Positions 15,691 through 64,000 of a stretch of DNA of 64,000 nt are shown here, piece by piece; the stretch's first letter is position 1, and the number at the start of each line of letters is the position of its first letter. The stretch is from positions 1,184,001 through 1,248,000 of the forward strand of contig CM000436.1 of the NCBI GenBank assembly GCA_000165345.1, in the 5' to 3' direction. Position numbers and translations under genes: made by a program. The notes below the pieces were generated by a model, which saw only the letters and a list, made by a program, of their open reading frames with translations, made no database searches and was not told where the DNA came from.

Positions 15691-15729
15691 ACGTGGTTTT
15701 ACCGCCGCCCCACGTAAGGTACCGGTATT
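15691..15729. promoter_or_regulatory. ACGTGG-N13-CCACGT inverted repeat enclosing ACCGCCGCCC, followed by GGTACCGGTATT; ~400 bp upstream of FCP1
   Basis: A perfect 6-bp inverted repeat flanks a GC-only core. Confidence 0.45.
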
Positions 15730-16119
15730 ATTAATTAAATATAATAAAAAATATACTTTAATAATATAAGTATGAAAGAAATTTATATATTTAAATTTAT
15801 AATAATGTTAAACATAAATATTTTGTGAGAGAAATAAAGAAATAGAGAAGAATAAGAAGGGGTGAGGAAAAAAAGTAAATAAAAAAAAGAATTACAAGAT
15901 CTTAAGAAAGTAATATGTAATAAATAAGATAATTGTAAAAATATAGGTTAAAATTTTGCTAGTAGAATTAAGTAATTTGATTAAATTTTATTCAAGTATT
16001 TATAAATTAATATACAAGACAAGATTTAGATCATTCTTTTAAATAATAAAGATTAAATTAAACTAATTATTATTATTCCTAATATTAATATAGGTATATA
16101 ATCAATATAATAACTTGAT

Positions 16120-18408
16120 ATGAGTGAGGATGAGAAAATACAAATTAAATGTTTAACTGAAATATTTAAGAATCCAGTTAAAATAGAATGGAAAAAGTAT
16201 TTAAATGATAAAATAAAACCTGGAGAAGTTATTTTAGATATTTCAGATTTGAATAATGGTCAATTAGTTACAAGAATTAAATCAATATGTCATGGAAAAA
16301 TATCAAGTTGTTTAACTCCAAAAATATGTGAAATCATTTCAGTAATAAAACAAAATAATAATGAACATATTTCAGAATTTGAAATTAAAGATTTAACGAA
16401 TGAAAGTTTTGAGAAATCAATTTTATATATTAAACAAGAAAATCCAAATAGTCATAATAATAGATATTATTTTGGTTATTATTTATGTGATCATACTACA
16501 TTTTTAAGTAATATATGTGTAGAATGCGGATTTATACTCGAAGGAAAAAGTGAATTTTCTAATAATAATAAATCAATTAAAAGAGTTAAAGCTGGAAATA
16601 ACAATAATGAGATAGCAGAAATTGAATCTACTAATATAAGTAGACGTGATCATAAAACAGGTAACTATCATGAAAATGATAGAAATGAAAGAATGTTAAT
16701 AAATGCAGGTTTTCTTTCAAATAATAATGATATTAAATTTAATAAGAATTATGTAGATGAACAAGAAAAATCTTTTATATTTGAACTATTATATATAAAG
16801 AGAAAGTTAAGCTTAGTTTTAGATTTGGATAATACATTAATACATGCATCTTCAACTTTACCAGAAATTAAAAAAAATGATGAATTTATTGAAATTAAAG
16901 AAATTATGGAAAATGAAATTACTGAAGAAATTTATAATAAGTATTATGGTAGTGTTGTAATGCTTGGAAATAAACCACAAAGTAATGAATTACTTCCAAA
17001 AGGAATTGATCATTTTCCTCATTATAATAATGATACAGATTCAAATATTGAAATTTATTTTAAATTATTAGAAAGTTTGATATTTTGTATTCCATTTGGC
17101 AATTCTTTAAATTCTGGAATAGAAAGACAATCTAGAAATAGCTCAAATTGGAGTTTTGGATATTATAAATTAAGACCTGGTGTAATTAATATGTTGAGAA
17201 CTCTTTCTAAAGATAAATATGAAATCTATATGTATACTATGGGAACAGAATATCATGCATATACTTCACTTCGAATTTTGGATCCAGAATTACGTTTTTT
17301 CCATTCAAAGAGAATATTTTATAGAAATAATGGATTTAAAGAGACTTCAATTAAAAGTTTAAATACTTTATTTCCATATGATCATCGTACTTTAGTCATT
17401 TTGGATGATATTGAACAAGCTTGGACTGATATTAATTCATTATTAAAAGTTTATCCATATAATTTTTTTCCAAGTAATTCAATTCCAAATGATTCATCTA
17501 GTTTTTCTAGATATATTTCACAAATTAGAACAAACAATAAATGGAGTCAATTAATAAAAAAGAAAAGAACTAGAAATGATCAAATATCTGAGAATGATTG
17601 TAAAGAAAAGGATGAAATAGATCAAAATAAAATTGATAAAGAAATAACAAAGGAACAATCTTGTATTGATATTATCAAAGAAATCATTAGATCAGAAAAA
17701 GATTATCAGTTATTGATATTCCAAAAGTTATTAATAGCTTTACACGATGCATATTTTAAAGAATTTGATTTAACTTTAAGTAAAAAAGGAGAATTTCATG
17801 ATGAAGATTCATTGGTTTATATAATTTATAGAGATGCACCAAATATTTCCAATATTATTAAGATTATGAGAAGAGGAGTACTTAAAGATTGTAATTTACA
17901 ATTTACTGGTTTCAATAATAAATTCTTTTATAACTTTGTAGATTCAGATTTATATAAATGGTGTAGATATTTTGGTTCAAGTATATTGGATAATAATACA
18001 AAGAATTACTCAGAGAAATTAATTGCTACTCACTGTATATGTGAACAATTATTTACAGAAAAGTATCATCATGCAAAAGAAAAAGGAATTCCATGTATTA
18101 ATATTTTATGGCTTGAAACTATTATTTATACATGGATTAGCCCTTTAAAGATTAATATAAATAATCCATTATTTTGTGATCCTGTTAATTCAGATTATTA
18201 TTCCCCTTTTGAAAGTTTAAATTTGAAAGATAAAGAATCTCCAGACTACTTTGACTTTGATAATTACAGTTATTCCTATCTTTATTCTACAAATACAAGC
18301 GAATCACTTAAGGAACAACTTTGGGAAGAAGCTTTTAACGATATCTCATTTTCTATGGGAGAAGAAGATGATGATGGCGAAGAAGAAGAAGATGATGATG
18401 ATGATTAA
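16120..18408 (+). CDS. FCP1: RNA polymerase II CTD phosphatase FCP1 (FCP1-homology/NIF phosphatase domain + BRCT domain, acidic tail)
   Basis: LSLVLDLDNTLIHAS is the DxDxT catalytic motif of the FCP1/SCP family. The C-terminal LQFTGFNNKFFYNFVDSDLYKWCRYFGSSI...IATHCICEQ is BRCT-like. The tail is EEDDDGEEEEDDDDD. Confidence 0.85.
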   Translation: MSEDEKIQIKCLTEIFKNPVKIEWKKYLNDKIKPGEVILDISDLNNGQLVTRIKSICHGKISSCLTPKICEIISVIKQNNNEHISEFEIKDLTNESFEKSILYIKQENPNSHNNRYYFGYYLCDHTTFLSNICVECGFILEGKSEFSNNNKSIKRVKAGNNNNEIAEIESTNISRRDHKTGNYHENDRNERMLINAGFLSNNNDIKFNKNYVDEQEKSFIFELLYIKRKLSLVLDLDNTLIHASSTLPEIKKNDEFIEIKEIMENEITEEIYNKYYGSVVMLGNKPQSNELLPKGIDHFPHYNNDTDSNIEIYFKLLESLIFCIPFGNSLNSGIERQSRNSSNWSFGYYKLRPGVINMLRTLSKDKYEIYMYTMGTEYHAYTSLRILDPELRFFHSKRIFYRNNGFKETSIKSLNTLFPYDHRTLVILDDIEQAWTDINSLLKVYPYNFFPSNSIPNDSSSFSRYISQIRTNNKWSQLIKKKRTRNDQISENDCKEKDEIDQNKIDKEITKEQSCIDIIKEIIRSEKDYQLLIFQKLLIALHDAYFKEFDLTLSKKGEFHDEDSLVYIIYRDAPNISNIIKIMRRGVLKDCNLQFTGFNNKFFYNFVDSDLYKWCRYFGSSILDNNTKNYSEKLIATHCICEQLFTEKYHHAKEKGIPCINILWLETIIYTWISPLKININNPLFCDPVNSDYYSPFESLNLKDKESPDYFDFDNYSYSYLYSTNTSESLKEQLWEEAFNDISFSMGEEDDDGEEEEDDDDD

Positions 18409-18844
18409 GATGAAGATGGAGATGATGATGATAAATACAATGATTACGATAATGATGATAATGACGAAAATCTATATATTTCAGATTCTAATTACTCAAA
18501 GAATTCTTAATTTGAAAAAATTTCAGAATTAGAATTCACTTTGACATCAGAATATTAGATAATTACTGATGACTCTCATTTATTGTCATTTCTTAGAATG
18601 GCGGGCTCAATTTTTGTTTCTTTTCCTCAATTTAATACACTGAAAATATGAAATAGCATCTAGTTCTTCATATAAAATTTCAATTAAAGTCTATAATACA
18701 ATATTGTTATTTATGAATGATTTACTAGACTAGATAAAAATTCTTGATTTATGATTTAATACTAAGGGATAATTAAGAAATATTATGTGTAAATAAGAAT
18801 GACTTTACATTTAGAAATAAAATAGCAATTTTATTTTTGCTTTC

Positions 18845-18864
18845 GCATGCGGAAAATGGCGCCA
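18845..18864. promoter_or_regulatory. GCATGCGGAAAATGGCGCCA, ~90 bp upstream of the zinc-ribbon gene ATG
   Basis: The TGGCGCCA palindrome plus GCATGC. Confidence 0.5.
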
Positions 18865-19555: not shown

Positions 19556-19556
19556 T

Positions 19557-20755: not shown

Positions 20756-21100
20756 TTTTGTTTTTTTTTTTTAATATTGAAATTCTGAGTTGAGGGGTGA
20801 TGTGTGAAGGAATATTTTATATTATATATTGTGGGAGATGACAAATTTATAATATAATATGTGCTCGTATTCGTGTATAAAATAAAGTATAAAAAAGAAG
20901 ACATACCGTTTATAATTAATAGTTTGTCTCAATAAGAAATACTTATATAATAAATAAAGTGTATTAAAATGCATCATAAGATTATTAATTATTAATTTAA
21001 GATAAAATTAAATTAAAAGGGAAACAAATTTGAGATATATAACTCAAATAGTAATAATTACATCAAACGCATCAATAAATATAAATATAATAGTGGAGAA

Positions 21101-23828: not shown

Positions 23829-23838
23829 NNNNTNTNTT
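23829..23838. other. run of ambiguous bases (nnnntnt); single N also at 14774, 23951, 24437 and 24812
   Basis: A low-quality or gap region in an extremely AT-rich spacer. Confidence 0.9.
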
Positions 23839-24519: not shown

Positions 24520-27500
24520 TCACTCCTTTTTAGGAATTTCTTGATTTAAATTCACATTCTTTAAACTATTATTATTGTTTGTTGGATCTTGAATTGGATT
24601 TCCAATTGTTGTCCCTCCTTTATTTATTCCATTAAAGCCAACTAATGGGTTTCCAATATGTTGTTGAAATTGTTGTTGCTGAAGTTGTTGCTGTTGTTGT
24701 TGTTGTATTATTAAACTCAACATATCTCCTCCAATGGAATTTCTATTTAATTGTTGTCGACTTTGAAAATTAAAAGGGATTGTATTTGCTAGAAACTGTT
24801 GTTGCAGTTGTNGCAATTGCAGTTGTTGTTGCTGCTGTTGCAGTTGTTGTAGTTGTTGAAGTTGTTGTTGTTGTTGTTGTTGTTGCTGTTGTTGTTGTTG
24901 TTGCTGCTGCTGCTGCTGCTGCTGTTGCTTTAACTGTAGCTGCAATTGAAGTTGAAGTTGTAGCTGTTGATTGTGTTGTTGCTGCAGTTGCTGTTGTTGT
25001 TGATGTTGTTGCTGTTGTTGCTGTTGCAATAACTGTTGTTGGAACAAATGTTGAAGTTGGAAAAAGTTAGGAAATGCTTGGGGTTGTGTTTGCAAAGAGG
25101 TTTGTGAAAAAAGTCCATTTCCAACCCCGAATTCATTTCCAACTCCAGCTTCAATTCCAGCTCCAGTTCCAATTCCAGCTCCAGTTACAACTCCAACTCC
25201 ACCACTTCCAGCTCCAGCATCAATTCCAGTTCCAGCTCCTACACCAACTCCAGATCCAACTCCAGCTCCTACGCCAACTCCTACACCAACTCCAGATCCT
25301 GCTCCAGCTCCAGATCCAGCTCCAGCTCCAGCTCCAGCTCCAGCTCCAGCTCCAGCTCCAGCTCCAGCTCCAGCTCCAGCTCCAGCTCCAGCTCCTACTG
25401 AATTCAAAGTTGCAGAATCAAATATTCCTGGAACTATAACACCTTTATTTGAGCTATTTTCTGTTTTTGAATTAAATCCTCCTTCTCCGCCTTCTGAGGC
25501 TCCCATTGTTATTTTACTTGAAATTTCAACAACCTCACATGACTTCTCTCCGTCTACTATCGCTTCCTTAGCTAAAACCATACTCTTACTATTATCGTAA
25601 TCCCCTACTTTAGTAGAATCTCCAACTAATACCTCATTCTTGTCCTCATTCTTCTCCTTCTCTGTCTCTTTCTGCTCTTCTTTTCCATATTGATCATTTA
25701 CTGATATTCCTTCTACTAATCCAGAAACCATCTCTGCTTTCAAATCCGTAATCAGAGTTTCAGATTCAGGTTTGAGCTTAGTTTCAGGTCCAGGTTCAGA
25801 CTCAAGATTGGGTTCAGTTTCAGGATTAAGATCCCGCTCTTTTAACTCTGTAGAATCTTTAGTTGTTGAATTATTTACAGAAGTTGGATTAGGACTTGTA
25901 GTGATACCTGCAGTATAATTACTACCGCCAACAATTCCACCACTTCCCAATAATGTGTTCATTATCATCTGATTTAAAGGATTTGCCAATCCTCCAACAA
26001 ATCCAATCTGTTGAGAATTTCTCATTTGTTCTTGTAATGTTTGCTGAAAAACCAACTGTTGTTGTAAGTATTGATTCATTAATATACTATTCCAAGTCTG
26101 ATTGTGATTGCTCTGGGAATTAATATTTGTTGAATCACTTGTACTATTATTAACACTGCTTGTTGTATTAACACCATTATTCACAGGATTTATAGATATG
26201 GGATTCTCTGTTGCTCCTACTGCTCCTGATACCGATCCTGATTCTCCTATTCCTGTTCCTCCCACTCCTCCTGCTACATTATGCTGTCCAAGATTAGACC
26301 CCAAGCCTCCAAATAATAATCCAGAAGGATACCCCACTCCTGTTGCTCCTGTTGCTCCTGTTGCTCCTGTTGCTGCTCCTACTCCTACCCCTGCTCCTCC
26401 TACTCCTGTTACTCCCATTCCTATCCCTCCTCCTCCTCCTAATCCCAACCCTCCTATACCAGGAATTCCCCCCTTAGCCATTCCAGGTATACCAGATATG
26501 CCTCCTATACGAGGTATTCCTCCTAAATTTTGTAGTCCTCCCATACTTTGTAGTCCACCCAAACCCTGAAATCCTCCTATACCTTGTAGTCCTCCAAGCC
26601 CTGACAAATCTTGAATGCCATTACCGCTCCCACTACAACTATTACTACTGCTACTGTTATTAATATCATTACCACCACTTCCTCCTACATCACCAACAGC
26701 ATTTTCCACTCCCATTCCAGAATAAATACCTGTATTTGATACTTGGCAAGGCTTTAATGGATTCACTTGAGATGTAACATTTCCACATGAATTAATAATT
26801 GATGGAAAACCACCTGATAAAATTGGTATAGAATTATCATTAACTTTAGGTAATTGTAATCCAAAATTTACGTTACCCATATTCATATTTAATAATGAAT
26901 TTGGCTGTAATTGACTTAGTCCAGGAATTGAATTATCTGAAATAAAGTAGTTTGCTAGAATTCCATTATTATTTAATAATAGTAAGTTATTAATATTATT
27001 GGATGATGATGATGTTTCTATTTTACCATTTAATACTTTATTATTACTATTTCCTTTCATATACTCATCCATCAATTTTGGTATCTTTCTATTCATACTC
27101 TCTTCATTATATTCATTTAAACCAATATTATTACCATTTCCACTACTCATTAGTATATCATTACTGTTCGTATCACTAACTTCCTTGCTATTTAACAATC
27201 CTACTACTCCTGTTACACCTGATCCTGGCCCTGATCCTGGCCCTGATCCTGATCCTGACCCTGATCCTGACCCTCTCTTACGTCTTCCTTGCCTTGGCTT
27301 CTCATTCATTGATGATTTTTGTAATACCGAATTACTATTTATATTATTAACTATTTCCAAATTTCTTAATTTACCTTTACCTGTCTCTGTTGATGGAACA
27401 TTTGAGACATAATTTGAAATATCTGAAGATAATGAATAATCTTGCTTATTTGATGGAGATATTGTCAAAGAATGTAATAAAGAATTACTACCATTTATAA

Positions 27501-30500
27501 CTCCTCCTAATTCTCCCATTATATTATCCATAAACTGATTCAAATATAAATATACCGATACCTTTAAATCATTTATTGATATATTTGGATCCAAATATGA
27601 CATATTCAAAGATTCTTGATCTTTATATTCTTTATGATCAAATATTATTGGTATATTACTTGGTAATTGTATATTTGAATTTCCTTGCTTATTTTGAATA
27701 TTTATATTATAAAAAGGAGAAATTAATGCATCCATATCTTTTGGTAATATATATCCATTACTTAAGTTATCCATTGTATATCTTTTATTTGTATTTAAAT
27801 GAGAATCATCATGTTTTCTAAATAAAAACTTATATATTAAATCATCATATAATCCCCATTCTTCTTTCTTTTCTATTCCTATCATATTATTATTCATTTC
27901 TCTTCTTTCAATTATTGGAAGCCTAAATAATGTTGATGGTCTATTTAACATTCTTCTTAAAGATGATCTTGAAAGAAGTCTCTCTGTATACATATTCATA
28001 TTACCAAGACTACTAAAACATGATCTCTTATAAAAATCTCTCATAAAATGATTATATGTTGATTCAATTGTTAAAGTATTCAATATTTCATCAATTAAAA
28101 GCTCCCTATATGAATGTTTCTTATATTTAATAATCTCCATACATCTTATAGTACTAATAAGACTATTCCAAAATATACTCTTATCTTTTTTTATTTGTAT
28201 ATTATCATCATCTTGAGAATCTTTAATAATTCTTTGAATATTTTCTTCTGTATCATCTTTTGTATGAATTGAAGATGATATTATTTCATCATCATTCATT
28301 ATATTATGATCTTTTTGATCATAATGATGATTCATATTAATTTGATTCTTATTATGATTTCCTTTAAAATAATATACTAATCTTAAAATCCTTTTAAATC
28401 CTAATGTATATTTATATTTGTAATAAAAATCTATACAATCTTTAATAGTCTTATATTCCATAAATGATGCTATCCTTCTGAAATCTTTTGGATACATTAA
28501 ATACTTTTCTATAAACATTCTTATTTCTGAATAAGTCCATATAGTATTTCTATTCCTTTCTTGATCAGTTGGATTGATTACTTGATTATTCTTATTAATA
28601 TAAATAAATTTCACAGGTTTAATAGGATCTTGATCATAAACATTAAATTCAATTTCTGCAGGAAATCTAAAAATACTATTCTCAAACCATAGTGGAGATG
28701 GACCTATAAAACTGGATGATGAACTAGTCATTTGCATCCATTCTCTTTGAGCTTGTTTTTGATGTACTATTCCTTTTTCTCTTTCTCTATTTTTTTGTAT
28801 ATTCAATCCAATATCTTTTTCTTTATCTTTTTCTTTATTAGAAATAGGTATTTCTTTATAATTTTTAGTTACCCCGATACCTAATGTTGTAGTACCAGAA
28901 GAACCAAATGATAAAGAATTACAACTATTAGAATGAGAAGGATTAGATTGTGATGTAGAAGTGATATTATTTCCTGTTAAAATATTTCCAATTGATGGTT
29001 GAGAATCATTTTTCATAACTGATGCAAATTCATTAGAATAATTTGTAGATCCAGGTACCCCTCCAGTTTTAACCAAATTAAGAAATGATAAAGATGCATT
29101 GCCTGTATTTGATGACATAGAATGATCTTCATTTCCAATAATATTATTGGAAGAATGATAATTATCATTAGAATTTCTTGTCCTTCTTGATCTTGTAGAA
29201 TTTAATTCAAAGGTACCGACATCAATTCCTCCAGTTCCTCTTTTTCTTCTTGTATTACTAACAGTATTAAGTGTTTCATTTGTTGAATTAGAGATATTAT
29301 TTATATCATGAGTATTCCGATTAATACTTTCAGAATGATTTTGTTCAATATTTCCAATATGATCACTTCCTTTTAATATACCTCCTTTTGTTTGAATATT
29401 ATATAACTTTTGATTATTATTAGTATTAGTAGAATCAATATTATCACCAAATACAAGAGCTCTATTAGAATTAGTAAAAAGTATTGGTGTTTGAATATTT
29501 TGTAAAGACATCATATAAGTTTTTGATATATCATTATTTCTACATTCAGGTAGAAGATCTAGAAATTTATGATATACTTTAAACCTAAAATCATGTTTAA
29601 AATAACCAATAGGTAAAGGTACCAATTGATCAGGATGATCAATTGCTCTTAAAGGTAAACAACCCCAAGTAAAATTCAGATCTCTTTCACTATTTAACAT
29701 TTCATTATATGCAACATATCTTTTATAACGATGATATATAAAATGTAAAGATCTTTTAATATTTGATATTTCATTTCTAATCATGATCTTTTTTCTTTTA
29801 ATATGTTTTCTTACTCTTTGAATTTTTGAAGAATAACCAAGTAAATTAATAGGATGATAAAAATCACCATTAATTGGTCTTAAAATATCTTTAATAACTT
29901 TTAAAGCAAACTTATTATGATCTTGTATTGGATAACAAAGACTAGTATAGTATGGCATTAAAGATACATATTCTGGTATACCAAGTATAACTTCAATATA
30001 ATCTTGTATTTCTCTATCAATAACTAAATCATCCTGATAGATTTTAATAATTTCAAGAGTATGATCATCTTTACTTTCTTCTAAAATAGATTCTAATAAC
30101 TTAATTTCATCCATTAAATAGTTAAATGTTGATATAAGAAATGGAATATGATCACCAGTATTTTTTTGATGATTATCGATAGTAATGATCTCATTAATTT
30201 TATCCTTTAAAACTTTTAAAGAATTTAATTTCTCAATATTTTCTTCTTTGAGTTTTTGTAAAGATTCTGTAATTCCAAAATCATTATTAATATGAGAAGA
30301 AGAATTAGAATCTTGAGAATTTTTATTTTCATTAATAAATCGTATTCGGTACCTTTTTAGATCTTTATTATTTGTATCAATTTCACTATTAATAAATTGA
30401 TCCAACTCTTTAATTCTACCAGGCAAAACACAAATCTTAACTTTTTGTCTTGCAGTTCTAAAAGCCTGACTTGTATTTTCCATAACTGAAGCCAAGTAAT

Positions 30501-31749
30501 TATAATTATGATCATTTTCTTCTAAATTATTATTAATTTCAGAGTTTCCCGCCTTTTCTGTAAAGAATGAGCAAGAATCTGAAATATTGTTAGAATTAGA
30601 AGAATCAATATAAAGATTTTCGAATGCCGTATTGGTATGTTCATCTTCAACTTTTTTTAGTGTGAGATTAGATAGATTGAAATCTGGAGTTAGAAATTCA
30701 ATAGCTCCTAGTAGTCCTTGTTTGTAATTAATAGACTTTTTGTGATTATAATCAGTAAGTCCAGCACAAGATGATGATTCATAAGAGGTACCTAAAGTAA
30801 TTTGAGAAGTTTCTTGAGATCTTTTAACAAGATTAACTTGATAAATATGATATATTTTACATAAATCATTCAAGAATTGACCATTTTCTCCATAAGTTGA
30901 GCTATTAACTGAATTAATCTTTTTAATGTTTCTAATATTTCCCAAGCTTAAATTTAAGTATGGACCTCTTCTATGATCTTGTGCTATTGGTAGTTGTTGT
31001 AAATTGTAATTCTCCAGTTCTCTACCTCCTTTATCATATAAATCTTTCAAGTAATATTTACAAGCTAAAGTAAAAATATCCAAAGGAGTTCTTGATCTTA
31101 ATATCTTTTCTGTTTCATCTATCTCAGTCTTTTCCTTGGAGCTAGTGTTCTTCCTTCTAAAGTATCTTCTATGAGTTTTCTTCTTTTTTGTGTTTATAGC
31201 TTTCAAATCTTTTGTAGAAGAGGAGCATGAATTATTAATATTACTATTGTTATTAGTTGCATTTAAACCAGAACTTGAGCCTAAATTAGCTCCTGAATCA
31301 AAATCTAGAGCCTCACATATCTCTTCTCCTTCTCCATCATCTAAATCATCATCCATAATAGAAGTTGTTAAACAATTTTCATTAAAGTTAATACTATTTG
31401 CCTCGATATTTCTTCTTTCTTGTTCCTTTTTTAATTGTTCCAACTCTAAATTAATTCTCAGTATCTCATCCTGAAGGTATAATACTAAATTATGATCCTT
31501 TAAAATATTTACATTACCAAAAATCATCTTATCTTGAATCTTCTCTTCATCTATTATTGGCTCATATAGAAATTCATCCTTGAATAAATTATCTTTCAAT
31601 CCTCCACCTTCACTAAAATCAGAAACTTGCTTCAAATATTTATCCACTAATTTCTCAAATTCATCAGCTTCCTTAACATTTTTAACTTTTCTACATCCAT
31701 TAATTATGCTTCCCAGCAAAATCTCGTTATATTCAGTTTCTTTATCCAT
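24520..31749 (-). CDS. giant (2409 aa) nuclear low-complexity protein with an N-CoR-type SANT domain; poly-Q, (AG)n, (GS/GP)n and LQ repeat tracts
   Basis: ATG at 31749-31747. WTYSEIRMFIEKYLMYPKDFRRIASFMEYKTIKDCIDFYYKYK matches the SANT consensus. The C-terminal third is encoded by microsatellites: (TTG/CTG)n at 24800-24960 and (GCTCCA)n at 25319-25396. An ambiguous base at 24812 falls inside the ORF. Confidence 0.75.
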   Translation of the reverse strand: MDKETEYNEILLGSIINGCRKVKNVKEADEFEKLVDKYLKQVSDFSEGGGLKDNLFKDEFLYEPIIDEEKIQDKMIFGNVNILKDHNLVLYLQDEILRINLELEQLKKEQERRNIEANSINFNENCLTTSIMDDDLDDGEGEEICEALDFDSGANLGSSSGLNATNNNSNINNSCSSSTKDLKAINTKKKKTHRRYFRRKNTSSKEKTEIDETEKILRSRTPLDIFTLACKYYLKDLYDKGGRELENYNLQQLPIAQDHRRGPYLNLSLGNIRNIKKINSVNSSTYGENGQFLNDLCKIYHIYQVNLVKRSQETSQITLGTSYESSSCAGLTDYNHKKSINYKQGLLGAIEFLTPDFNLSNLTLKKVEDEHTNTAFENLYIDSSNSNNISDSCSFFTEKAGNSEINNNLEENDHNYNYLASVMENTSQAFRTARQKVKICVLPGRIKELDQFINSEIDTNNKDLKRYRIRFINENKNSQDSNSSSHINNDFGITESLQKLKEENIEKLNSLKVLKDKINEIITIDNHQKNTGDHIPFLISTFNYLMDEIKLLESILEESKDDHTLEIIKIYQDDLVIDREIQDYIEVILGIPEYVSLMPYYTSLCYPIQDHNKFALKVIKDILRPINGDFYHPINLLGYSSKIQRVRKHIKRKKIMIRNEISNIKRSLHFIYHRYKRYVAYNEMLNSERDLNFTWGCLPLRAIDHPDQLVPLPIGYFKHDFRFKVYHKFLDLLPECRNNDISKTYMMSLQNIQTPILFTNSNRALVFGDNIDSTNTNNNQKLYNIQTKGGILKGSDHIGNIEQNHSESINRNTHDINNISNSTNETLNTVSNTRRKRGTGGIDVGTFELNSTRSRRTRNSNDNYHSSNNIIGNEDHSMSSNTGNASLSFLNLVKTGGVPGSTNYSNEFASVMKNDSQPSIGNILTGNNITSTSQSNPSHSNSCNSLSFGSSGTTTLGIGVTKNYKEIPISNKEKDKEKDIGLNIQKNREREKGIVHQKQAQREWMQMTSSSSSFIGPSPLWFENSIFRFPAEIEFNVYDQDPIKPVKFIYINKNNQVINPTDQERNRNTIWTYSEIRMFIEKYLMYPKDFRRIASFMEYKTIKDCIDFYYKYKYTLGFKRILRLVYYFKGNHNKNQINMNHHYDQKDHNIMNDDEIISSSIHTKDDTEENIQRIIKDSQDDDNIQIKKDKSIFWNSLISTIRCMEIIKYKKHSYRELLIDEILNTLTIESTYNHFMRDFYKRSCFSSLGNMNMYTERLLSRSSLRRMLNRPSTLFRLPIIERREMNNNMIGIEKKEEWGLYDDLIYKFLFRKHDDSHLNTNKRYTMDNLSNGYILPKDMDALISPFYNINIQNKQGNSNIQLPSNIPIIFDHKEYKDQESLNMSYLDPNISINDLKVSVYLYLNQFMDNIMGELGGVINGSNSLLHSLTISPSNKQDYSLSSDISNYVSNVPSTETGKGKLRNLEIVNNINSNSVLQKSSMNEKPRQGRRKRGSGSGSGSGSGPGSGPGSGVTGVVGLLNSKEVSDTNSNDILMSSGNGNNIGLNEYNEESMNRKIPKLMDEYMKGNSNNKVLNGKIETSSSSNNINNLLLLNNNGILANYFISDNSIPGLSQLQPNSLLNMNMGNVNFGLQLPKVNDNSIPILSGGFPSIINSCGNVTSQVNPLKPCQVSNTGIYSGMGVENAVGDVGGSGGNDINNSSSSNSCSGSGNGIQDLSGLGGLQGIGGFQGLGGLQSMGGLQNLGGIPRIGGISGIPGMAKGGIPGIGGLGLGGGGGIGMGVTGVGGAGVGVGAATGATGATGATGVGYPSGLLFGGLGSNLGQHNVAGGVGGTGIGESGSVSGAVGATENPISINPVNNGVNTTSSVNNSTSDSTNINSQSNHNQTWNSILMNQYLQQQLVFQQTLQEQMRNSQQIGFVGGLANPLNQMIMNTLLGSGGIVGGSNYTAGITTSPNPTSVNNSTTKDSTELKERDLNPETEPNLESEPGPETKLKPESETLITDLKAEMVSGLVEGISVNDQYGKEEQKETEKEKNEDKNEVLVGDSTKVGDYDNSKSMVLAKEAIVDGEKSCEVVEISSKITMGASEGGEGGFNSKTENSSNKGVIVPGIFDSATLNSVGAGAGAGAGAGAGAGAGAGAGAGAGAGSGAGAGSGVGVGVGVGAGVGSGVGVGAGTGIDAGAGSGGVGVVTGAGIGTGAGIEAGVGNEFGVGNGLFSQTSLQTQPQAFPNFFQLQHLFQQQLLQQQQQQQHQQQQQLQQQHNQQLQLQLQLQLQLKQQQQQQQQQQQQQQQQQQQQQQLQQLQQLQQQQQQLQLXQLQQQFLANTIPFNFQSRQQLNRNSIGGDMLSLIIQQQQQQQLQQQQFQQHIGNPLVGFNGINKGGTTIGNPIQDPTNNNNSLKNVNLNQEIPKKE
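24800..24960. repeat. (TTG/CTG)n trinucleotide tract inside the giant SANT gene, encoding poly-Gln on the minus strand
   Basis: gttgttgttgttgctgctgctg; includes the N at 24812. Confidence 0.9.
25319..25396. repeat. (GCTCCA)13 hexanucleotide repeat inside the giant SANT gene, encoding (AG)n on the minus strand
   Basis: A perfect tandem hexamer. Confidence 0.95.
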
Positions 31750-32111: not shown

Positions 32112-32155
32112 TTTGGCGCCAAATCATTCGATACCATATTAATAATGCCGGTATG
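32112..32155. promoter_or_regulatory. perfect palindrome TTTGGCGCCAAA plus GCCGGTATG, ~360 bp upstream of the giant SANT gene (minus)
   Basis: A 12-bp palindrome in the 536-bp head-to-tail spacer. Confidence 0.55.
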
Positions 32156-32285
32156 TAAAAAAAAATTGTAACGGTATCATGTCTCGAGATCTAAAAATTT
32201 TACAAAATAAAATAAGCAAAATAAAAATAAAGAATATTAATAAAATACAAAAAAATTAAACTGAATTAAACAAAATATGATTTTT

Positions 32286-35200
32286 CTATTCATGTCTACC
32301 AATTGTATCTGAAATATCTGGAAAATCTTCTTTAGCTTCTTGTTTATGTGTTGTAATATTTTGAGATTTTGTGTTGTCAATTTTACATATCTCTGAATCC
32401 TTGTGTGAATTTTCAACACTTGTTTGAGATAAAAACGCTGTTTCATTTCCTTGAAATACCACAGAATTACTTTCAAAAGTTAAATTAGAGTTATTATTAT
32501 TGTTTTTTATTGTTGAAGGAGTGTAATTGCCTAATGTAATATCTCCAACTGAAATATTATTCCCATCGTTTATATTCAAATTAGAATTCATATTAGAATT
32601 TGAAGTAGAAATAGTGTTAGAATTTGACTGATTGTTTGAAAATCTATAAGTATTGGTTACAGGATTAGAATGGAGTTTGAAATTAAGGTTTTTTTGAAAA
32701 AATAAGTTTTCATCCAGTAATATACTATTTTTAGGACTTGCATTGCTACTTTGAGAATAAGATTTAAAGAATTGTAAGGTATTATGAAGTCTTCTTTTTA
32801 ATGAAATATACTTTTTAAATAGAATTATCTGAGAAATAAATAAAGTAGTAAAAAGTAATGCAATAATTAAAGTCTGGAAATGATTATAAAAGTAACCAAA
32901 TAAATTTAGTATTGATAACCTTATACTTTCAAATAGTTGTGTTAAATAGGTTATTGCTTCACCTGAATAATATTTTCCAAGAAATCTTTCAAGGTAACTT
33001 CCTACTAAATTTAAACTTTGGATTAAATAAATATCTCCCAATTTTAAAAATTTGATCTGATCTGTATCATTTTGTTCATTTTCTGTATTATTCATATTAG
33101 AACCCAATAGTATATCTTGGAGAAATTTTACTGAATTTGAAAGTCTATATATTGAATCATTTATATCATCAAAAGAAGAGTTAAAATCTGCAATAATTGC
33201 TCTTCTTTCAAGCTTCACTGTATCCAATTGTTTCTCTAAAATCTTAACTCTATCTATTAGAGATAATAATGGATGTGATTTTGAATTTGTAAAATAACGA
33301 CCATTTATTGATTCTAAATGATCTTCAAAAATTTCTCTCTTATCAATATACTTATCCTTTTCTTGATTCTTGATTAATAAACTCCTACTTTCTGATCTTT
33401 TAACCTCAAATGCTCCAAGCATATCATCATCTTTTCTTTTTTTATTATTTGTACCTGTATTAAAATTACTAGAATTAAAATACATTATTTGTGGTTTCTG
33501 ATCATTTATTGTTTCATGTATATCTCTTTCAATATCTCTTTTCCAAAGACGATTCTCTACATCTTTAACACTCTCTTCCATCTCTGACATTGAAATAGAA
33601 CTTCTTCTATCACCTCCTCCCATCTCAACCTCTAATCTATTAATTACATTATTTCCAAAAATTTGAATCCTATTTAAATGACAATAATAATGTCCTTCTT
33701 CATAATATGATATTGCTCTCACTCTAATATAACGAACCCAACATGGATTTGAACCATGAACTAAGTTATTCTCCTTAATATGGCCACCAGAAATAATAGA
33801 ATCTTTTCTAATACCAGATACTGATTGATCTCTATTATTTCTATGATCTATTTTATCAGATGCTTTACTTAAGGTATTATCTTCTTTAATATCAGATACT
33901 CTAGATCCTTTTAAACTGGTATGAATATGATCATGATCATCAATATTATAGACTAAATGATCAAAAAGATGATTTCCTTCATCATGTTTTACACATAAAG
34001 TCTTTAAATCAAACATTTCTTTTGGTAATATTTGATTTCTTCTTAATATACCGATAGGTATCCATTGTTTAGTTGGATATATTAAGCTACCAGAAATTTC
34101 AATTTCTCTAAAAGATGATGAAAAATATTCAAGAGAAAATAATGCAATATATTCAAGAAATATATCTTCTTGAAATCCTATAACAAACCACATTGGCTTA
34201 TTACAAGGTACTAATAGATATGAATCTGGATTAGAAGATTGAACAGATTTTGGACGTAATACTCCTTCACTCCAAGATAAAACTTTACTATTAGAAGAAC
34301 TTGATGCATAATCATAATGTAGAGCTGCTAATTGGCTTACATAAGGTGCTCCTTGAATAACTTTTAATTTACTTTTCTCATCCATTTTATCTTCTCTAGA
34401 AACTTTGATTTCAACCTCTTCTTTCTCTTCCAATCTTGTATTCTTATGTTTAATAGTTTCTAAACTACCACATATATGTAAATCAGGATTTGGACTTCCA
34501 TCATTTCTTAACATAATCATACTATCCAAAAATGGTGGAATACATTTATTTTGGGGAGAAATATGGGAAGATCCTAATGTAGAAGATAAATTTGAACCAA
34601 CAGAAGTTCCTATTGTTGTTGAAATACAAGAACTATGTGATCCTGAAGATGTTGGAATCTTAATAATATCTTTATTAAGTATACTTTCTTCAAAATTATT
34701 GGACTGTTCTTTTGAAACCTTAAAAGGTTCATAGTATTCACCAGATATTTTCCTCTTAAAAGATAATTTAAAGGATTTATCACTATTTGAAGTAGTAGAA
34801 TCTGATTCTAACTCCAAACTTTTATATATATTCAACATAGACTTTGAAACAGCTTTAAGCTTAGCAGAAATTTCCAAATTTTGTTTAATTGGATGCCAAG
34901 AACACTTAAATAGAAATTGTGAAGGATGACAAGAGCTAATTTTTATACCAACTTTACGTAAATCGTCTAACATTAGCTCAAAAATTCCTCCAAGAAGATA
35001 TAAAGGAAAATTTTCTTTCCTTCTTAACTTTGTTCTAGCTACTAAACTTGATAAGCTTGTAATATAATTACTAGTAATACCATCAAAGTTTGTTAACTTT
35101 TTATCTTTAATTGAAAAAATGATCTCTCGTATAATGGAATTGAGTTTTGAATCTTTTTTTAATATTAGACATAACTTATTATCTAATTGAGAATTTACTC

Positions 35201-35762: not shown

Positions 35763-36293
35763 AAATATTGTGATTTTTTACTATTTTTTATATAATTTTT
35801 CATTTTCATTGAAACCCCGCTATAATTTATTTTTCCTATACCGGTAATACGTGTACATGCAAATTAGTAATAAATTATATTAAATTAAATTTAATAAATA
35901 AAAAGAAATTAAAACTAGTAATTTATATAGAAATTGGAGAATTATATAAGAAAATTGATTGACTTTGAGCAAATAAGAATTCAATCTATAATTAAATATT
36001 TACTATACTTTACAGATTTGTATGAATATTGTTTTATTATTACTTTGAATTTTGTCCACTTAAAATTGAATTTTGCATAATATATTTTTATCTAGTTATA
36101 TATTTATCCTATAGGTTTTTAAAAAGAGGAAAAAAAAATGTTTTAATCTATGATTATCTAGTTAACATAGTTGAGTAAATATAAAAATTAAATTAAACTT
36201 AACTTAATTCTCGTTAAATAAATAAAGTAAATAGAGTTATTAGAGTTTTCTTAATTTATTAAATCTTTAATATTAATATTAATAATATAATTA

Positions 36294-50425: not shown

Positions 50426-50805
50426 AACAAAGCATGTTATCGTCATTTAAAAATCCAATTCAGCCTGAGATTGGATTAAGTAGAATAAAGACACAATACA
50501 GGTTATGCTACGTTTTGTTTTAATAGGCTCAACAATTTAACTTATTTTTATTACGATTCTTTACTCTAAATCATTAATTTTTGACTGGAAAATTGTCTCA
50601 AGCATAATTTAGTAGTCGTCATATTGGCTTTATTGATTTTAATAATTATGACCAATTTACTTTCAAATCTTATTAATTTAGTCTTTATATCTTATATTAA
50701 TTAAATATAAACCTATTTAAATTATTGATTTCTTTCTTTTTTTATTTCTTCCTTTTTTCTTTCTTTAAGTTATTGTTAAAAATAACACCTATACCGTCCT
50801 TTGTA

Positions 50806-54180: not shown

Positions 54181-54364
54181 TATATAATAATAGCCTTATT
54201 TTTTTTTTTTATTCATAACTCACATTATTAGATTTTTCATTTGTTATAAAATTATTATTATTATTACACTTATTTCATAATATTTATATATTATTATATC
54301 TCTTTTTTACTTTTTCCCTCCTTATCCCCATTTTTTCTTACTTCATATTAACATGCTCTTTTTT

Positions 54365-54419
54365 GTGCATCGCCGTCTCGTCTCGTCTCGAAAAGTTGCA
54401 TACCGGTATTTAAGACAAA
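54365..54419. promoter_or_regulatory. GTGCATCGCCGTCTCGTCTCGTCTCG ... GCATACCGGTATT in the divergent DnaJ/TPS promoter
   Basis: (GTCTC)3 repeat plus the ACCGGTA palindrome. Confidence 0.4.
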
Positions 54420-54888: not shown

Positions 54889-59142
<4,254 letters not shown>

Positions 59143-59232: not shown

Positions 59233-62200
59233 TTATATACTTAGTTTGCTCTTCATTATCTCTTTAAAACTTTCGTTACAAATCTCCAAAACTACAAAAT
59301 ATGGTATACTCTTAAATTTACCCCATAACTTCGAAGAAATCACGTCATTACTATCCAAATAATCCTTCTTAAGACCACCTTTAACCTTATGAGAGTATCT
59401 AAAAGATGTAACTCCAACCAGAATTCTAGCAATATCTGCTGGAAAAATTACATCAAATTCTTCAAACCCTACATAATGTCCAAAATCTTGTCTTAAGGTT
59501 GCTTCTTCCTGTTGGGTATCGTCTTTTTTTCTTCTTTTAAAATCTTTTTGAAACTTGGAAGAAAAGTGAGATATTATTCTCTCTGTTGAAATTCGATAAG
59601 TTTCCCATTGTACTGGACTTAAATCATTAAGATAATTGCTTAATAAACTATTTATACCTGACTTTATACAAGAACTTATCTTCTGATATGCTTCCCTAAT
59701 TTCCTTTCTTTCACTTAATCTTGTATTAATATCTTCATTTTGAAAATCTGATAATTGTGATCTCTCTTGTTTCAAAATTTCTATTGAATCTTTATCCTCT
59801 TCAACTTTTTTACTTATATCTTGACTTCCTATTAAAGAATCTAATTGAACTAACTCTCTCCCTCCCAATGCAAGATCTTGTAATAATTCCTGATTCCATT
59901 TTGTAATCCAAATTTCCTGTATCATCATTTCAAAGGTATTATCTCCAAATGATTTATTATTAGAATTTCCAAAAATTAATTCTTTAATAAAACCACTAGA
60001 AATACCTTCTAAACCTTCATTTGAAATTGATTCTGAATTTTGATATTCATTCACCTCTTGATCAAATAGCTTAATATAAAGCTCAGATCTTTTATTAGCA
60101 AAATATGATTCAATAATAGAATCCTTACAACTTTTATCCATTCCAAATTTTTGAAATGAAAAATAAGCAATATCCAACTTCCAAAGTTCATTAGAATTAC
60201 GATAAACCAACTCTTTATGTAAATCTTCAACTAAAATATCCAACCAATTTTCTTTAATTATTTCTGAATCAGATTCTAAAAATAAAGATTTAAAATCTCT
60301 TCTAGATTTAAATTCTTCCATATCTACAATATATTGTGAATTGTCTTTAATTAAACTTTGACCTAAAATTATACATTGTTTATTTGTTAATCTTTCCACA
60401 GAAATCTTCCAAGTACTTTTTTCATTCTCAACTTCATCCTCCAATTCTTCTAAACTCTTTTCTAAAAACATAGATGCCTCTAAAAGATTAATAGTAATAA
60501 CACCAGAATTCTCTGTTGAAAATCTTGATAATGAACTAAAAAAATCACTCTTCTCTTTAATCTTGGAAAAATCTTCATCAAAACATCTGATTTTTAAATA
60601 TGGACTCCCTCTTATATAACTAGACCAACTAGCTTTAATATTCTTTCCTTTATATTTTATTCCTAATAAATAATCCATATATAGCTTTAAATTATATAAT
60701 AAAGTCTCAATTTCTTCCATTTGTTTCACATTTAAAATAATCTTGAAAAATTCCATTGGGAAAATTTCCAATTCTATTTTTTTCTTTTCAAAATCATTAT
60801 TTATATCCATTATATGATTATTACTAAAATCATATCTACCAAGTATTACATGTAATAAACATCTTAAAGCTGTTTTATCTATTAATGAAGCTGAAATAAT
60901 TTGTCTCTTATTTCTATAATCTTCATCAGATAATAACATTAAACATATTCCCAACTTATCCAATTGCCTTGCACATCTTCCAGTTTCTTGTATATATTGT
61001 TCTAAAGAATTTGGCATATTCCAATGTATTACTGCATCAACATCTTTTTTATCAATTCCCATACCAAAAGATGTTGTTGCTACAAATATATTTGTCTTAT
61101 TATCAATAAATGATTTTTGTACCATTTCTCTCTCGCTATTACTCATCATTCCATGATAATATAAAGCATTTGCTCCTTTTGTTCTTAAGTAATTTGTTAC
61201 AGCTTCCACTTCTGATCTTTGCCAGACGTAAATCAATATATTTCTACATTTTGACCAAACTTCTCTCCTTGTTTTCTTTTTCTCATGTAATTGAGATTCT
61301 ACTTGAGTACTATTATTTGGATTATGATTACCATTCAAAGAATATTTAATGTGATCCCATAATAAAGAGTAGTTATTGTACATTTTTGGTACTTTTGTAA
61401 TATTCAAACTTAATCCTCTATTAAAATCTTGTAATGCTTTTTTTTTCATAGAATCCAGATGCAAAACTTTACAATGAAGATTTTCCCTTTGTATTTTTTG
61501 GTTAGAATATGGTTGTATAACCTCTCCCACTTTAAGCAAAGATTTGAGTTCTTCTAACATACCAGAAGGAGCAGTAGCAGTAATTCCTAATATTCTCTCA
61601 ACTTTAAAGTTATTTATTAAATGTCCAATAGAAGAGTAATAACTTGGTCTGAATGAATGTCCCCATTCACAAACACAATGTGCTTCATCTACACATAGTA
61701 ATGCAATTTTGTTCTTTGACAAATCCAATCTAGCCATTCTAATTTCATGTTGATCTTGATTAATTTCTAACAATCCTTTTGTTAAAAATGTTGAAAACAT
61801 ACTTTCTGGTGTAACAAATAAAATATCCAAACTACCCTCTTGAATTAACTTTATAATAGACTTCTTCTCTTCTACTGATACACTTGAATTCCAGATTGCT
61901 CCTCTAATTCTTTTACTTAAAGTCCTTAATTGATCTTGCATTAAAGATATTAAAGGCGTAATTACTATTGTAACTTTCCCAAACCACATATTTAATAACA
62001 ATGATAAGTATTGGAAACACAAACTTTTTCCATATCCTGTTGGAAGAATTAAAATACTTCCTTTTTTAAAACTCTTATTTTCTTTACCACTTAATAGTAT
62101 CGAATATATTGCTTCCAGTTGGCCTTCTCTAAAATCACCATATCCAAAATTTTCTTCCAAAAACTGTTTACATAAATTTCCTAAAACCTGACAATTATTT

Positions 62201-63498
62201 CCAGAATTACTTTCATTCTTCTTATCATTATCAGCTTGATAAATTAAAGAATCAACTTCTTCTTTTATCTTTTTAGATAATTCCAAAGATGGTCTATCCA
62301 AAAGAGAGATTTCTTCTCTGAAGCAATCTTTACAACCTTGAGAAAAGTTATTAGACCATTTTCTTGGGTCATTTAATATATCACTTTCTTGTAACTTTAG
62401 ACTCTCGTGATTTCTTCTCTCATTATTACTCTTGTTCTTCAATAAATACTTGTTGAACTTGACTTCATTTCTCTTTTCTTCTATCCTTTCCCATTTCTTC
62501 AAATTCCGAACTTGTTCACCACCATTATTCATCATATTTTCTTTCCCTTCTTCAATTGTATTTTCAGATTCAATTTCCTTATCTTTGTTGACTCTCACTC
62601 TACCATTACTATTATAAGTTCTTTTTCTAACTGCTCTAACTGTTGATACTCCACTAATATACCTATTCTTGCTCTTGGGGACGGTTTTTGGACCCCAAAG
62701 CTCAGAAGAACCCTTTTCTTTTTGCTGTCTCTTTCGACCTTTCCTATTTTCCTCATTCACCTTACTGACTTCTTCTGTAGATACTTCTCGTACTTCGCTC
62801 TCTCTGATTTGAATATTTTTAGTTTCTTGATCTAAATTATTCTGACTTTCATTACTAATATCTCCCTCATCCAATTCTCCTATATCTTTGTGTTTCTTGT
62901 TATTAATAGAATTTGTCTCTTTTTTCATATTATCTAAATCATTATCCAATCTAGAATCTTCTTGTGATGGCTTATTTTCAGAAACTAATAATCTTGGTAA
63001 TAGCCTTGAGCCTATCTTTCTACTATCCAATATTATCTTTGAAATCTTATCTTTGAACTTTAGCCAATAATCCCTCATCTCATTTGGAGGCTGATTAAAC
63101 TCCTCCCATTTAGTATAATAATGATCATTTTTCCACTTTATAAAGCATTCAAGTATATCAGATTTACTTTCCTCCAATTGAATTATTTCCAAGTATACAC
63201 CAAAGTATTTGTCTTGTTTGATTTGGTCACTTATCACCTCTTTTTGTTCTTTAGAGTCACTTTTGCTCGTCCAAGTATTTCTAATTCGTTCCAAAATATC
63301 TTCAAGGTTCAATTTTTCCTCCTCTTTATCTAACTGATCTTGAACTAATAACTTTAAATCTGATAATGCTTTGTCCAACTTTTGTTTATAAGGCAAAAAT
63401 TGCTCACTATATGGAGTTAGTGGCAAATTTAATACTACATCTGAAAGGTCTGTACCATTATATATTTGTCTTATTGTTCGCTTGTTTCCAGTACTCAT
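59233..63498 (-). CDS. RecQ-family DNA helicase (1421 aa)
   Basis: GDFREGQLEAIYSILLSGKENKSFKKGSILILPTGYGKSLCFQYLSLL, VTIVITPLISLMQDQ, LLCVDEAHCVCEWGHSFRPSY and the later FVATTSFGMGIDKKDVDAVIHWNMP are RecQ helicase motifs I, Ib, II and V-VI. ATG at 63498-63496. Confidence 0.85.
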   Translation of the reverse strand: MSTGNKRTIRQIYNGTDLSDVVLNLPLTPYSEQFLPYKQKLDKALSDLKLLVQDQLDKEEEKLNLEDILERIRNTWTSKSDSKEQKEVISDQIKQDKYFGVYLEIIQLEESKSDILECFIKWKNDHYYTKWEEFNQPPNEMRDYWLKFKDKISKIILDSRKIGSRLLPRLLVSENKPSQEDSRLDNDLDNMKKETNSINNKKHKDIGELDEGDISNESQNNLDQETKNIQIRESEVREVSTEEVSKVNEENRKGRKRQQKEKGSSELWGPKTVPKSKNRYISGVSTVRAVRKRTYNSNGRVRVNKDKEIESENTIEEGKENMMNNGGEQVRNLKKWERIEEKRNEVKFNKYLLKNKSNNERRNHESLKLQESDILNDPRKWSNNFSQGCKDCFREEISLLDRPSLELSKKIKEEVDSLIYQADNDKKNESNSGNNCQVLGNLCKQFLEENFGYGDFREGQLEAIYSILLSGKENKSFKKGSILILPTGYGKSLCFQYLSLLLNMWFGKVTIVITPLISLMQDQLRTLSKRIRGAIWNSSVSVEEKKSIIKLIQEGSLDILFVTPESMFSTFLTKGLLEINQDQHEIRMARLDLSKNKIALLCVDEAHCVCEWGHSFRPSYYSSIGHLINNFKVERILGITATAPSGMLEELKSLLKVGEVIQPYSNQKIQRENLHCKVLHLDSMKKKALQDFNRGLSLNITKVPKMYNNYSLLWDHIKYSLNGNHNPNNSTQVESQLHEKKKTRREVWSKCRNILIYVWQRSEVEAVTNYLRTKGANALYYHGMMSNSEREMVQKSFIDNKTNIFVATTSFGMGIDKKDVDAVIHWNMPNSLEQYIQETGRCARQLDKLGICLMLLSDEDYRNKRQIISASLIDKTALRCLLHVILGRYDFSNNHIMDINNDFEKKKIELEIFPMEFFKIILNVKQMEEIETLLYNLKLYMDYLLGIKYKGKNIKASWSSYIRGSPYLKIRCFDEDFSKIKEKSDFFSSLSRFSTENSGVITINLLEASMFLEKSLEELEDEVENEKSTWKISVERLTNKQCIILGQSLIKDNSQYIVDMEEFKSRRDFKSLFLESDSEIIKENWLDILVEDLHKELVYRNSNELWKLDIAYFSFQKFGMDKSCKDSIIESYFANKRSELYIKLFDQEVNEYQNSESISNEGLEGISSGFIKELIFGNSNNKSFGDNTFEMMIQEIWITKWNQELLQDLALGGRELVQLDSLIGSQDISKKVEEDKDSIEILKQERSQLSDFQNEDINTRLSERKEIREAYQKISSCIKSGINSLLSNYLNDLSPVQWETYRISTERIISHFSSKFQKDFKRRKKDDTQQEEATLRQDFGHYVGFEEFDVIFPADIARILVGVTSFRYSHKVKGGLKKDYLDSNDVISSKLWGKFKSIPYFVVLEICNESFKEIMKSKLSI

Positions 63499-63920
63499 TT
63501 CATCCTATTTTAAGCTTAATTATTACTAATACTTTAACAGTTAATTATTATTATTATTATTATTATTTTACCAAAGAGAAATTCAAGTTATTGTAAGGTC
63601 TAGTATAGTTAATCAATGAGAATATATTATGGTTTTTAACTCTTCAAAAAGTCAAATGTACCACTAGCAAATCCCAATTCTTTATATAATCTACTCAGCT
63701 TTCTTCTCAAAATTCTTTGATTATATTCCACCTGATACTATTACTCTATTTCCAAATCCAATTTTTCCAACCTCTTTTGTCATCTAATTCTTTATATATA
63801 ATGCTAACATTCAACCGGATAATACATGTTACTGATGTTTTTCCTTTTTGGCTATTTTCTTTTTCTTTTTTTCCCTTTGCTACCTTTTTGTTACATTTAA
63901 CTCTTGGGAAAGTGTGGGGA

Positions 63921-64000
63921 AGATTGCCCGCTCAAAATTGCATGTATTAAGCTCCGGTAAAATGTTCATGTAGTTTTGCAATACCGGTATGCCTGCATGC
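63921..64000. promoter_or_regulatory. TTGCCCGCTCAAAATTGCATG ... CTCCGGTAAAATG ... AATACCGGTATGCCTGCATGC, upstream of the RecQ gene (minus)
   Basis: CCCGCTCAAAA (as at 2069), two CCGGTA copies and a terminal GCATGC. Confidence 0.45.

Follow-up and report, generated by a model that had tools for sequence, protein, structure and literature searches.

Cryptosporidium species possess a very small transcription factor set and about six listed families of promoter motifs, among which two 8-bp palindromes dominate, namely TGGCGCCA (E2F/DP) and TGCATGCA (AP2_1). A further palindrome, TACCGGTA, is known from oomycetes. In Phytophthora infestans it is M94, an orphan palindromic promoter motif that the accessible text of Roy et al. 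(2013) discusses within a "high-confidence" set, most motifs of which are judged there to be conserved in orthologous promoters. The accessible parts of two other studies give it as motif-9 (GTACCGGTA; Seidl et al. 2012), an inverted repeat that 1,284 genes have in their upstream regions, and as streme-5 (ATACCGGTAT), located upstream of 206 genes in Plasmopara halstedii (2023). As far as these sources go, the oomycete motif is over-represented upstream of genes, was found computationally, and has no binding protein named. Here we analyzed TACCGGTA in a 64,000-nucleotide stretch of Cryptosporidium DNA (the window; GenBank assembly GCA_000165345.1, contig CM000436.1, positions 1,184,001–1,248,000 of the forward strand). 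The motif is real, non-random, and conserved, and a previous reading of the letters of this DNA (the sequence-only reading), which had taken it for a cis-element, was essentially right, although inaccurate in its details.

The window contains exactly four copies of TACCGGTA (15720–15727, 35839–35846, 54401–54408, and 63982–63989), and searches with WACCGGTAW or ACCGGTA return the same four places. Dinucleotide shuffling of the whole window predicts 0.04 copies, and none of 100 shuffles reached four. We separated a coding set of 45.6 kb from an intergenic set of 18.4 kb, the latter comprising all DNA outside open reading frames (ORFs) of ≥150 amino acids. All four copies fall into the intergenic set, where 0.036–0.053 would be expected (an approximately 100-fold excess), and the coding set contains none. 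Shorter words behave in the same way: intergenic DNA holds 6 copies of ACCGGTAT (0.07–0.12 expected), 10 of CCGGTA (0.65–1.1 expected), and 11 of CGGTAT/ATACCG (1.6–2.2 expected). Markov models of order 1 to 3 assign p values of 6e-8 to 6e-5 to the recurrence of TACCGGTA. A further 9.5 kb past the window end adds no copy.

Because coding trinucleotide repeats swamp a k-mer ranking of the whole window, we limited this analysis to intergenic and palindrome-only rankings. With the AT repeats ATATATAT and TATATATA set aside, TACCGGTA is third of the 256 palindromic octamers in intergenic DNA, behind TGGCGCCA (E2F) and TGCATGCA (AP2). Among intergenic k-mers, CCGGTA, ACCGGTAT, and TACCGGTA likewise rank directly below the E2F words (GCGCCA, TGGCGCCA) and the AP2_1 words (CATGCA, TGCATGCA). 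The three palindromes are thus alike in length, in being confined to intergenic DNA and highly over-represented there, and in occurring in the same promoters, whereas TACCGGTA differs from the other two in its sequence, in its copy number (4 versus 5–7 intergenic copies), and in being apparently uncatalogued.

The sequence-only reading had listed six ACCGGTA-centered palindromes. It placed those at 15718–15729 (GGTACCGGTATT) and 63981–63990 (ATACCGGTAT) correctly, whereas its positions 35830–35839 (TTTTTCCTAT) and 54410–54419 (TTAAGACAAA) lie 9 bp off the real sites, and its entries at 32147–32155 (GCCGGTATG, GCCGGTA) and 63952–63958 (CTCCGGT, TCCGGTA) turned out to be one-mismatch copies. Its assignment of the sites to 5′ or divergent spacers is sound, as all of them lie outside ORFs of ≥150 amino acids and upstream of start codons, with TACCGGTA sites always 77–490 bp from the ATG. 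The proposed proximity to a GGCGCC or GCATGC box, usually within 40 bp, applies to three of the six sites (32146, 63953, and 63982, with gaps of 25, 34, and 5 bp) and fails for 15720 (at least 425 bp), 35839 (>2.8 kb), and 54401 (192 bp).

The window represents the parvum/hominis/tyzzeri group, and a 14.8-kb overlap with GCA_031892065.1 (record CP029787.1) is 100% identical. The apicomplexan origin that the sequence-only reading had presumed is thus correct. Its ORFs are long, intronless, and densely packed, with a GC content of 22–40%; non-ACGT bases occur at 14774, 23829–23836, 23952, 24438, and 24812. The DnaJ, SUN-domain, and C-terminal domain (CTD)-phosphatase ORFs share 97–98% identity with cluster representatives that bear the names C. 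tyzzeri or C. hominis, and weaker orthologues of these ORFs come from C. meleagridis, chipmunk genotype I, C. ubiquitum, C. canis, C. felis, C. ryanae, C. xiaoi, and C. muris. We collected orthologous loci around three anchor genes and analyzed 12 loci in all. The GC content is 46–49% in the C. canis loci and the C. felis locus and 25–31% in the window species, chipmunk genotype I, C. ubiquitum, and C. muris. Promoter motifs survive this compositional shift. In C. canis intergenic DNA, TACCGGTA occurs three times (0.10 expected) directly below TGGCGCCA and TGCATGCA, the same palindromes heading the ranking, and 46 kb of C. canis coding DNA contains no copy. A total of ∼200 kb of coding DNA is free of exact TACCGGTA, and every exact copy in the 12 loci is intergenic.

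Five promoter positions of the motif are conserved in two to five Cryptosporidium species each, and the distance from motif to ATG is similar between species. C. meleagridis, chipmunk genotype I, C. ubiquitum, and C. canis all carry the copy between the DnaJ and trehalose-phosphate synthase genes unaltered, although the rest of this spacer aligns poorly. The copy upstream of the SUN-domain gene is kept in four species, reading TTACCGGTATAGG in chipmunk genotype I and C. canis and TCACCGGTATAGG in C. felis. The RecQ-side copy is also kept in four species, as ATACCGGTAT in C. ubiquitum and as CACCGGTAT in C. meleagridis and chipmunk genotype I. The copy upstream of the CTD phosphatase gene is exact in C. 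ubiquitum (CCCACGTAAGTACCGGTATTATTA) and is represented in C. canis by the variant TATCGGTA within the same conserved block. At 32146, upstream of a SANT-domain gene, chipmunk genotype I and C. canis possess the full TACCGGTA (locus positions 13573 and 13597, respectively), indicating that the window species has lost one base of an ancestral palindrome. The 8-mers that the window spacers have in common with those of C. canis form a few islands only, namely TACCGGTA, AGCGGGG, TGGCGCCA, GAGACGAG, GCATG, and GGATAA.

These observations leave next to no room for chance, a compositional artefact, or dispersed copies of a repeat or mobile element as the source of the recurrence. There are only four exact copies, and CpG-containing words may behave oddly in AT-rich genomes; yet neither the shuffles nor the Markov models reproduce the count, up to five species retain the sites in place, and C. 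canis shows an excess of the word despite its different base composition. A known repeat family, which the sequence-only reading had named as an outcome that would overturn it, is not borne out either: the five window sites have mutually unrelated 30-bp flanks, so they are not repeat copies. We regard such explanations as already effectively refuted.

When 19 orthologous and paralogous sites are oriented toward the nearest gene, they read (T/C)ACCGGTAT, and a T follows the octamer in 17 of them. Three of five decayed copies read CACCGGTAT, i.e. they have lost the gene-distal T. Since decay usually removes this base, the functional core looks like ACCGGTAT or a CGGTAT half-site and does not appear strictly symmetric.

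Three features together form the signature of a transcription factor binding site under purifying selection: an excess that is limited to 5′ spacers, sites that hold their positions across genomes of divergent composition and otherwise altered spacers, and inclusion in clusters of known motif types. Judging from the sequences, we therefore consider it quite probable that TACCGGTA is a selectively maintained cis-regulatory promoter element, at which a sequence-specific DNA-binding protein most likely docks. The factor might bind as a monomer in one orientation or as a dimer on the full palindrome, and E2F, AP2-type, and other factors would probably join it in determining how active the promoter is. 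The sites are embedded in conserved clusters of recognized motif types (E2F-like, G-box, GCATG, CACGT, and CGAGAC). The neighboring conserved elements vary by promoter: E2F-like with CACGTA; GCATG with CACGTA and G-box; CGAGACG repeats with G-box; or an E2F site.

A bound protein could also serve mainly to organize chromatin, at boundary- or origin-type sites comparable with the yeast Reb1 and Abf1 sites that keep promoters nucleosome-free. Reb1 is a Myb-like protein, and its site CGGGTAA resembles CCGGTAA. Such a role would agree with the long T- or A-tracts that often adjoin the sites, with the functionally unrelated genes found downstream, and with the lack of a fixed spacing to other motifs. 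It agrees less well with the finding that sites occur ahead of genes alone; convergent spacers, however, make up just ∼3 kb of the sample. No observation made here separates a chromatin role from ordinary activator or repressor binding. We consider a mainly chromatin-organizing site quite improbable.

Alternatively, the conserved sequence might act as RNA, either as part of a small non-coding RNA or as an element of a 5′-untranslated region, given that the DnaJ-side copy heads a 96-bp block that is nearly unchanged in five species. This block consists, however, of recognized promoter motif types; its consensus fold is weak (−6.9 kcal/mol), and the covariation term of +0.08 amounts to none. An Rfam scan of the whole window gave no gathering-score match, a permissive scan yielded no better than E = 0.47 in the spacer, an 8-bp perfect palindrome is unable to fold on itself, and the flanks of the five sites are unrelated. 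With no RNA signal from the alignment fold and the permissive Rfam scan of the DnaJ block, we rejected the non-coding RNA idea, and a function as RNA is highly improbable. A tRNA scan of the whole window returned no match.

Neither Oberstaller et al. (2013), with 25 motifs and a supplement, nor Mullapudi et al. (2007) includes TACCGGTA. The word is likewise missing from the tables of motifs and of ApiAP2 specificities in a 2025 review (PMC12246861), as well as from the main texts of the 2014 ApiAP2 paper and of a 2025 preprint on the assay for transposase-accessible chromatin with sequencing (ATAC-seq), as far as these texts were accessible. Literature searches combining the motif word with Cryptosporidium returned primer sequences only. 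The study of chromosome 6 motifs by Bankier and colleagues from 2003 reportedly described only two abundant motifs. The motif thus apparently is uncatalogued for Cryptosporidium yet known elsewhere. The label "undescribed" given to it by the sequence-only reading is apt for Cryptosporidium and apicomplexan motif catalogues and has to be withdrawn for oomycetes, where M94, motif-9, and streme-5 are an identical published orphan motif.

M94, motif-9, and streme-5 represent one 8–10-bp palindrome, and the window copies have its published forms. As in oomycetes, the word is over-represented upstream of genes (here within 64 kb only), and the Cryptosporidium element shows conservation in orthologous promoters like the oomycete set. 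In contrast, the oomycete motif belongs to stramenopiles and not to alveolates, and it is tied to infection-stage and RXLR effector genes. The identity could reflect a shared ancient pair of factor and site, or it could be coincidence.

Among the known factors of Cryptosporidium, E2F is not a match, as TACCGGTA contains no GCGC and thus lacks the core [C/G]GCGC[G/C] of the E2F-like motif (TGGCGCCA/GGCGGGAA), whose sites occur separately in the same spacers. The assayed ApiAP2 specificities do not fit either. The sequence-only reading had suggested a comparison with ApiAP2 specificities; made by eye on Table 4 of PMC12246861 rather than on logos from protein-binding microarrays, it found no ACCGGT, and none of the 18 tabulated C. 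parvum array specificities (including AP2_1 TGCATGCA, AP2_2 GCACAC, G-box, GTGTGT, GCGTGCA, and AAAA) resembles it.

An ApiAP2 protein, for example one with a domain that is silent on protein-binding microarrays, is nevertheless the main alternative to a Myb-type binder. ApiAP2 is the dominant factor family, and further palindromes of 8 bp, TGCATGCA among them, are bound by its members. For array assays, four C. parvum AP2 proteins carry the entry "does not bind DNA", and C. muris, whose locus like that of C. ryanae did not show the motif, is said to lack five AP2 domains (PMC12246861). No assayed AP2 domain has an ACCGGT-like specificity (PMC12246861), however, and oomycetes, where the identical motif abounds, possess no more than two AP2 proteins and have, in their array data, a Myb protein as the sole binder of an ACCGGT core. 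We hold an ApiAP2 binder to be unlikely.

Our guess, which is more apt to be wrong than right, is that the binder is of Myb type rather than an already assayed ApiAP2 domain. It is favored because no assayed ApiAP2 specificity fits, because oomycete Myb proteins provide precedents, because TACCGG and the canonical Myb site TAACGG are one base apart, and because C. parvum encodes several Myb proteins. Those given as DNA-binding in PMC12246861 include cgd6_4510, cgd3_2510, cgd3_1120, cgd5_110, and cgd6_2250. We would also guess that it may be related to the reader of the identical oomycete motif. In protein-binding microarray data from P. infestans, the only factor with ACCGGT in its top 8-mers is the Myb protein PITG_08960 (NACCGGTC), a lead found in the supplement of the array paper, whose main text does not contain the motif. 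The P. infestans 2R-Mybs bind CCGTTAC, and the MYB-related protein PsMyb37 of Phytophthora sojae binds the sister palindrome TACATGTA, which differs from TACCGGTA in its two central bases only. The canonical Myb core (YAACGG/CNGTTR) is not present in TACCGGTA, and exact YAACGG occurs only in a variant at 32169–32177; this weakens the notion of a canonical Myb site but not that of a site read by a Myb-type protein. A palindromic ACCGGT core is also found in the Grainyhead/CP2 site AACCGGTT, which is bound by a dimer, as may be the case here, whereas its outer bases are AA...TT instead of TA...TA. To our knowledge, reports of the CP2/Grainyhead family come from animals and fungi only.

One Myb-like candidate was dropped. 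The ORF at 24520–31749 (minus strand, 2409 amino acids) has a Pfam Myb hit, and we considered it as an autoregulating binder, but its best matches are the SANT domain of NCoR2/SMRT and CoREST (E = 7e-10). By these matches, the product would probably be a corepressor-type protein rather than a DNA-binding Myb.

Several points weigh against TACCGGTA as the docking site of a (Myb-type) factor. Its function is argued entirely from enrichment and conservation, and the sample is small, with five promoters in 74 kb, from which the orthologous loci are not independent. Motif discovery on sporozoite ATAC-seq data gave only E2F-type and poly-T motifs, although the 2025 preprint displays just the top three. 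PITG_08960 prefers ACCGGTC over ACCGGTA, and the Myb assignment is made by analogy; moreover, the only Myb-like ORF of the window encodes the NCoR-type SANT protein, for which DNA binding is unlikely. Domain assignments give no clear common function for the five downstream genes, which are too few for a conclusion. Finally, the orthologous spacers sampled did not show the motif ahead of the phosphatase gene in C. ryanae or C. muris, or ahead of the SANT-domain gene in C. felis or C. muris, indicating that it is not universal in the genus or turns over; it may be restricted to the intestinal clade.

A third palindrome under purifying selection would be an element that neither the assayed ApiAP2 nor the E2F specificities explain, pointing to a non-AP2 regulator, possibly among the C. 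parvum Myb proteins. A wider proposal, which we consider improbable as a whole, is that TACCGGTA ranks third among the major palindromic promoter elements in Cryptosporidium and is read by a probably Myb-type factor shared with oomycetes, as an ancient stramenopile–alveolate pair of factor and site that survives in a reduced repertoire. Under this proposal, it may control a set of nuclear and genome-maintenance genes (CTD phosphatase, NCoR-like corepressor, SUN protein, and RecQ helicase). The motif provides a concrete probe for affinity purification (TAAATTTA is a mutated version of it) and for promoter engineering in Cryptosporidium, where tools for controlled expression are scarce. As oomycete pathogens have the identical word as an abundant orphan motif, a comparison across lineages is worthwhile.

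The exact copies read, in extended form, GTACCGGTAT, ATACCGGTAA, ATACCGGTAT, and ATACCGGTAT. The first (15720–15727) lies 400 bp upstream of the ATG of an ORF at 16120–18408 (plus strand) with NIF and BRCT domains that encodes an FCP1-like CTD phosphatase. It is preceded at 15697–15719 by an E2F-like TTTTACCGCCGCC and then CCACGTAAGG (plus strand), a block that the alignment shows to be kept in C. ubiquitum and C. canis. The phosphatase ORF comprises 762 amino acids from its first ATG, whereas the nearest annotated homologue has 789, so the true start may lie upstream and the motif at 15720 closer to the start codon. Approximately 960 bp upstream of the same ORF, TATACCGACGGATAC (15154–15168) is kept in C. 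ubiquitum and C. canis; it reads as two inverted TACCG-type half-sites that are spaced wider than in TACCGGTA.

The second copy (35839–35846) is located 77 bp upstream of the SUN-domain ORF at 32286–35762 (minus strand) and 448 bp upstream of the ORF at 36294–37901 (plus strand). It belongs to a conserved SUN promoter module (35812–35856, minus strand) that consists of GTACACGTAT, TACCGGTATAGG, a spacer of ∼16 bp, and TAGCGGGGTTT (G-box type), as identified from the alignment and from 8-mers common with C. canis. In the same divergent spacer, CTATAGGATAAATATATAACTAGATAAAAATATAT (36080–36114, minus strand) is near-invariant in the window species, chipmunk genotype I, C. canis, and C. felis, and it includes GGATAA and AGATAA, which by appearance are GATA-factor-like sites.

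The third copy (ATACCGGTAT, 54401–54408) occupies a divergent spacer, 221 bp from the DnaJ ATG (54180, minus strand) and 481 bp from the ATG of trehalose-phosphate synthase (54889, plus strand). It forms the gene-distal edge of the conserved 96-bp DnaJ block (54313–54408, minus strand), in which the elements follow in the order TACCGGTAT, GCAAC, TTTTCGAGACGAGACGAGACG, TGCAC, GAGCATGTTAA, and TGGGGATAAGGAGGG. The fourth copy (ATACCGGTAT, 63982–63989) lies 484 bp upstream of the helicase ORF at 59233–63498 (minus strand), whose DEAD/Helicase_C product scores 243 bits against TIGR00614, the NCBIfam RecQ family (cut-off 220); the next gene upstream is in tandem orientation. At a distance of 22 bp from this copy, the plus strand carries the one-mismatch copy TCCGGTAA (63953–63960), which is kept only by C. 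meleagridis (CACCGGAG on the gene strand) and not in chipmunk genotype I or C. ubiquitum.

The decayed copy at 32146–32153 (TGCCGGTA on the plus and TACCGGCA on the minus strand) lies 398 bp upstream of the NCoR/SMRT-like SANT-domain ORF described above. The order of elements in this promoter cluster is TAACGGTAT, TACCGGCA, GGTATCGA, and then the E2F site TTTGGCGCCAAA (32112–32123). GGTATCGA (32128–32135, minus strand), situated between the decayed copy and the E2F site, is a related proximal element; in a MAFFT alignment, its position reads GGTACCGA in chipmunk genotype I, GTACCGGA in C. canis, GGTATCTG in C. felis, and, with weak resemblance, TATATCGC in C. muris. TAACGGTAT (32169–32177, plus strand) reads as a one-base variant of TACCGGTAT that matches the Myb site YAACGG, and it is not conserved as such in the alignment with chipmunk genotype I. 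The palindrome TTTGGCGCCAAA is the sole element of the SANT-gene spacer that is retained out to C. muris, as TTGGCGCTAA.

Two further elements adjoin motif copies and are conserved between species, namely three CGAGACG units next to the DnaJ copy (54374–54390, minus strand) and GATCTCGAGAC next to the SANT-gene copy (32181–32191, minus strand). Their sequences are similar to those of motifs 10 (RMGACG) and 17 (VYGTCBC) in Oberstaller et al. (2013). Elsewhere in the window, ATACCGT half-sites at 20903–20912 and 50790–50799 lie ∼200 bp upstream of the ORFs at 21101 and 50996. Both are kept at equal distance in C. ubiquitum, the site at 50790 also in C. meleagridis, and the C. canis spacer that corresponds to the second of them (ORF 50996) has GGTACCGGTTTACGGGTACCG.

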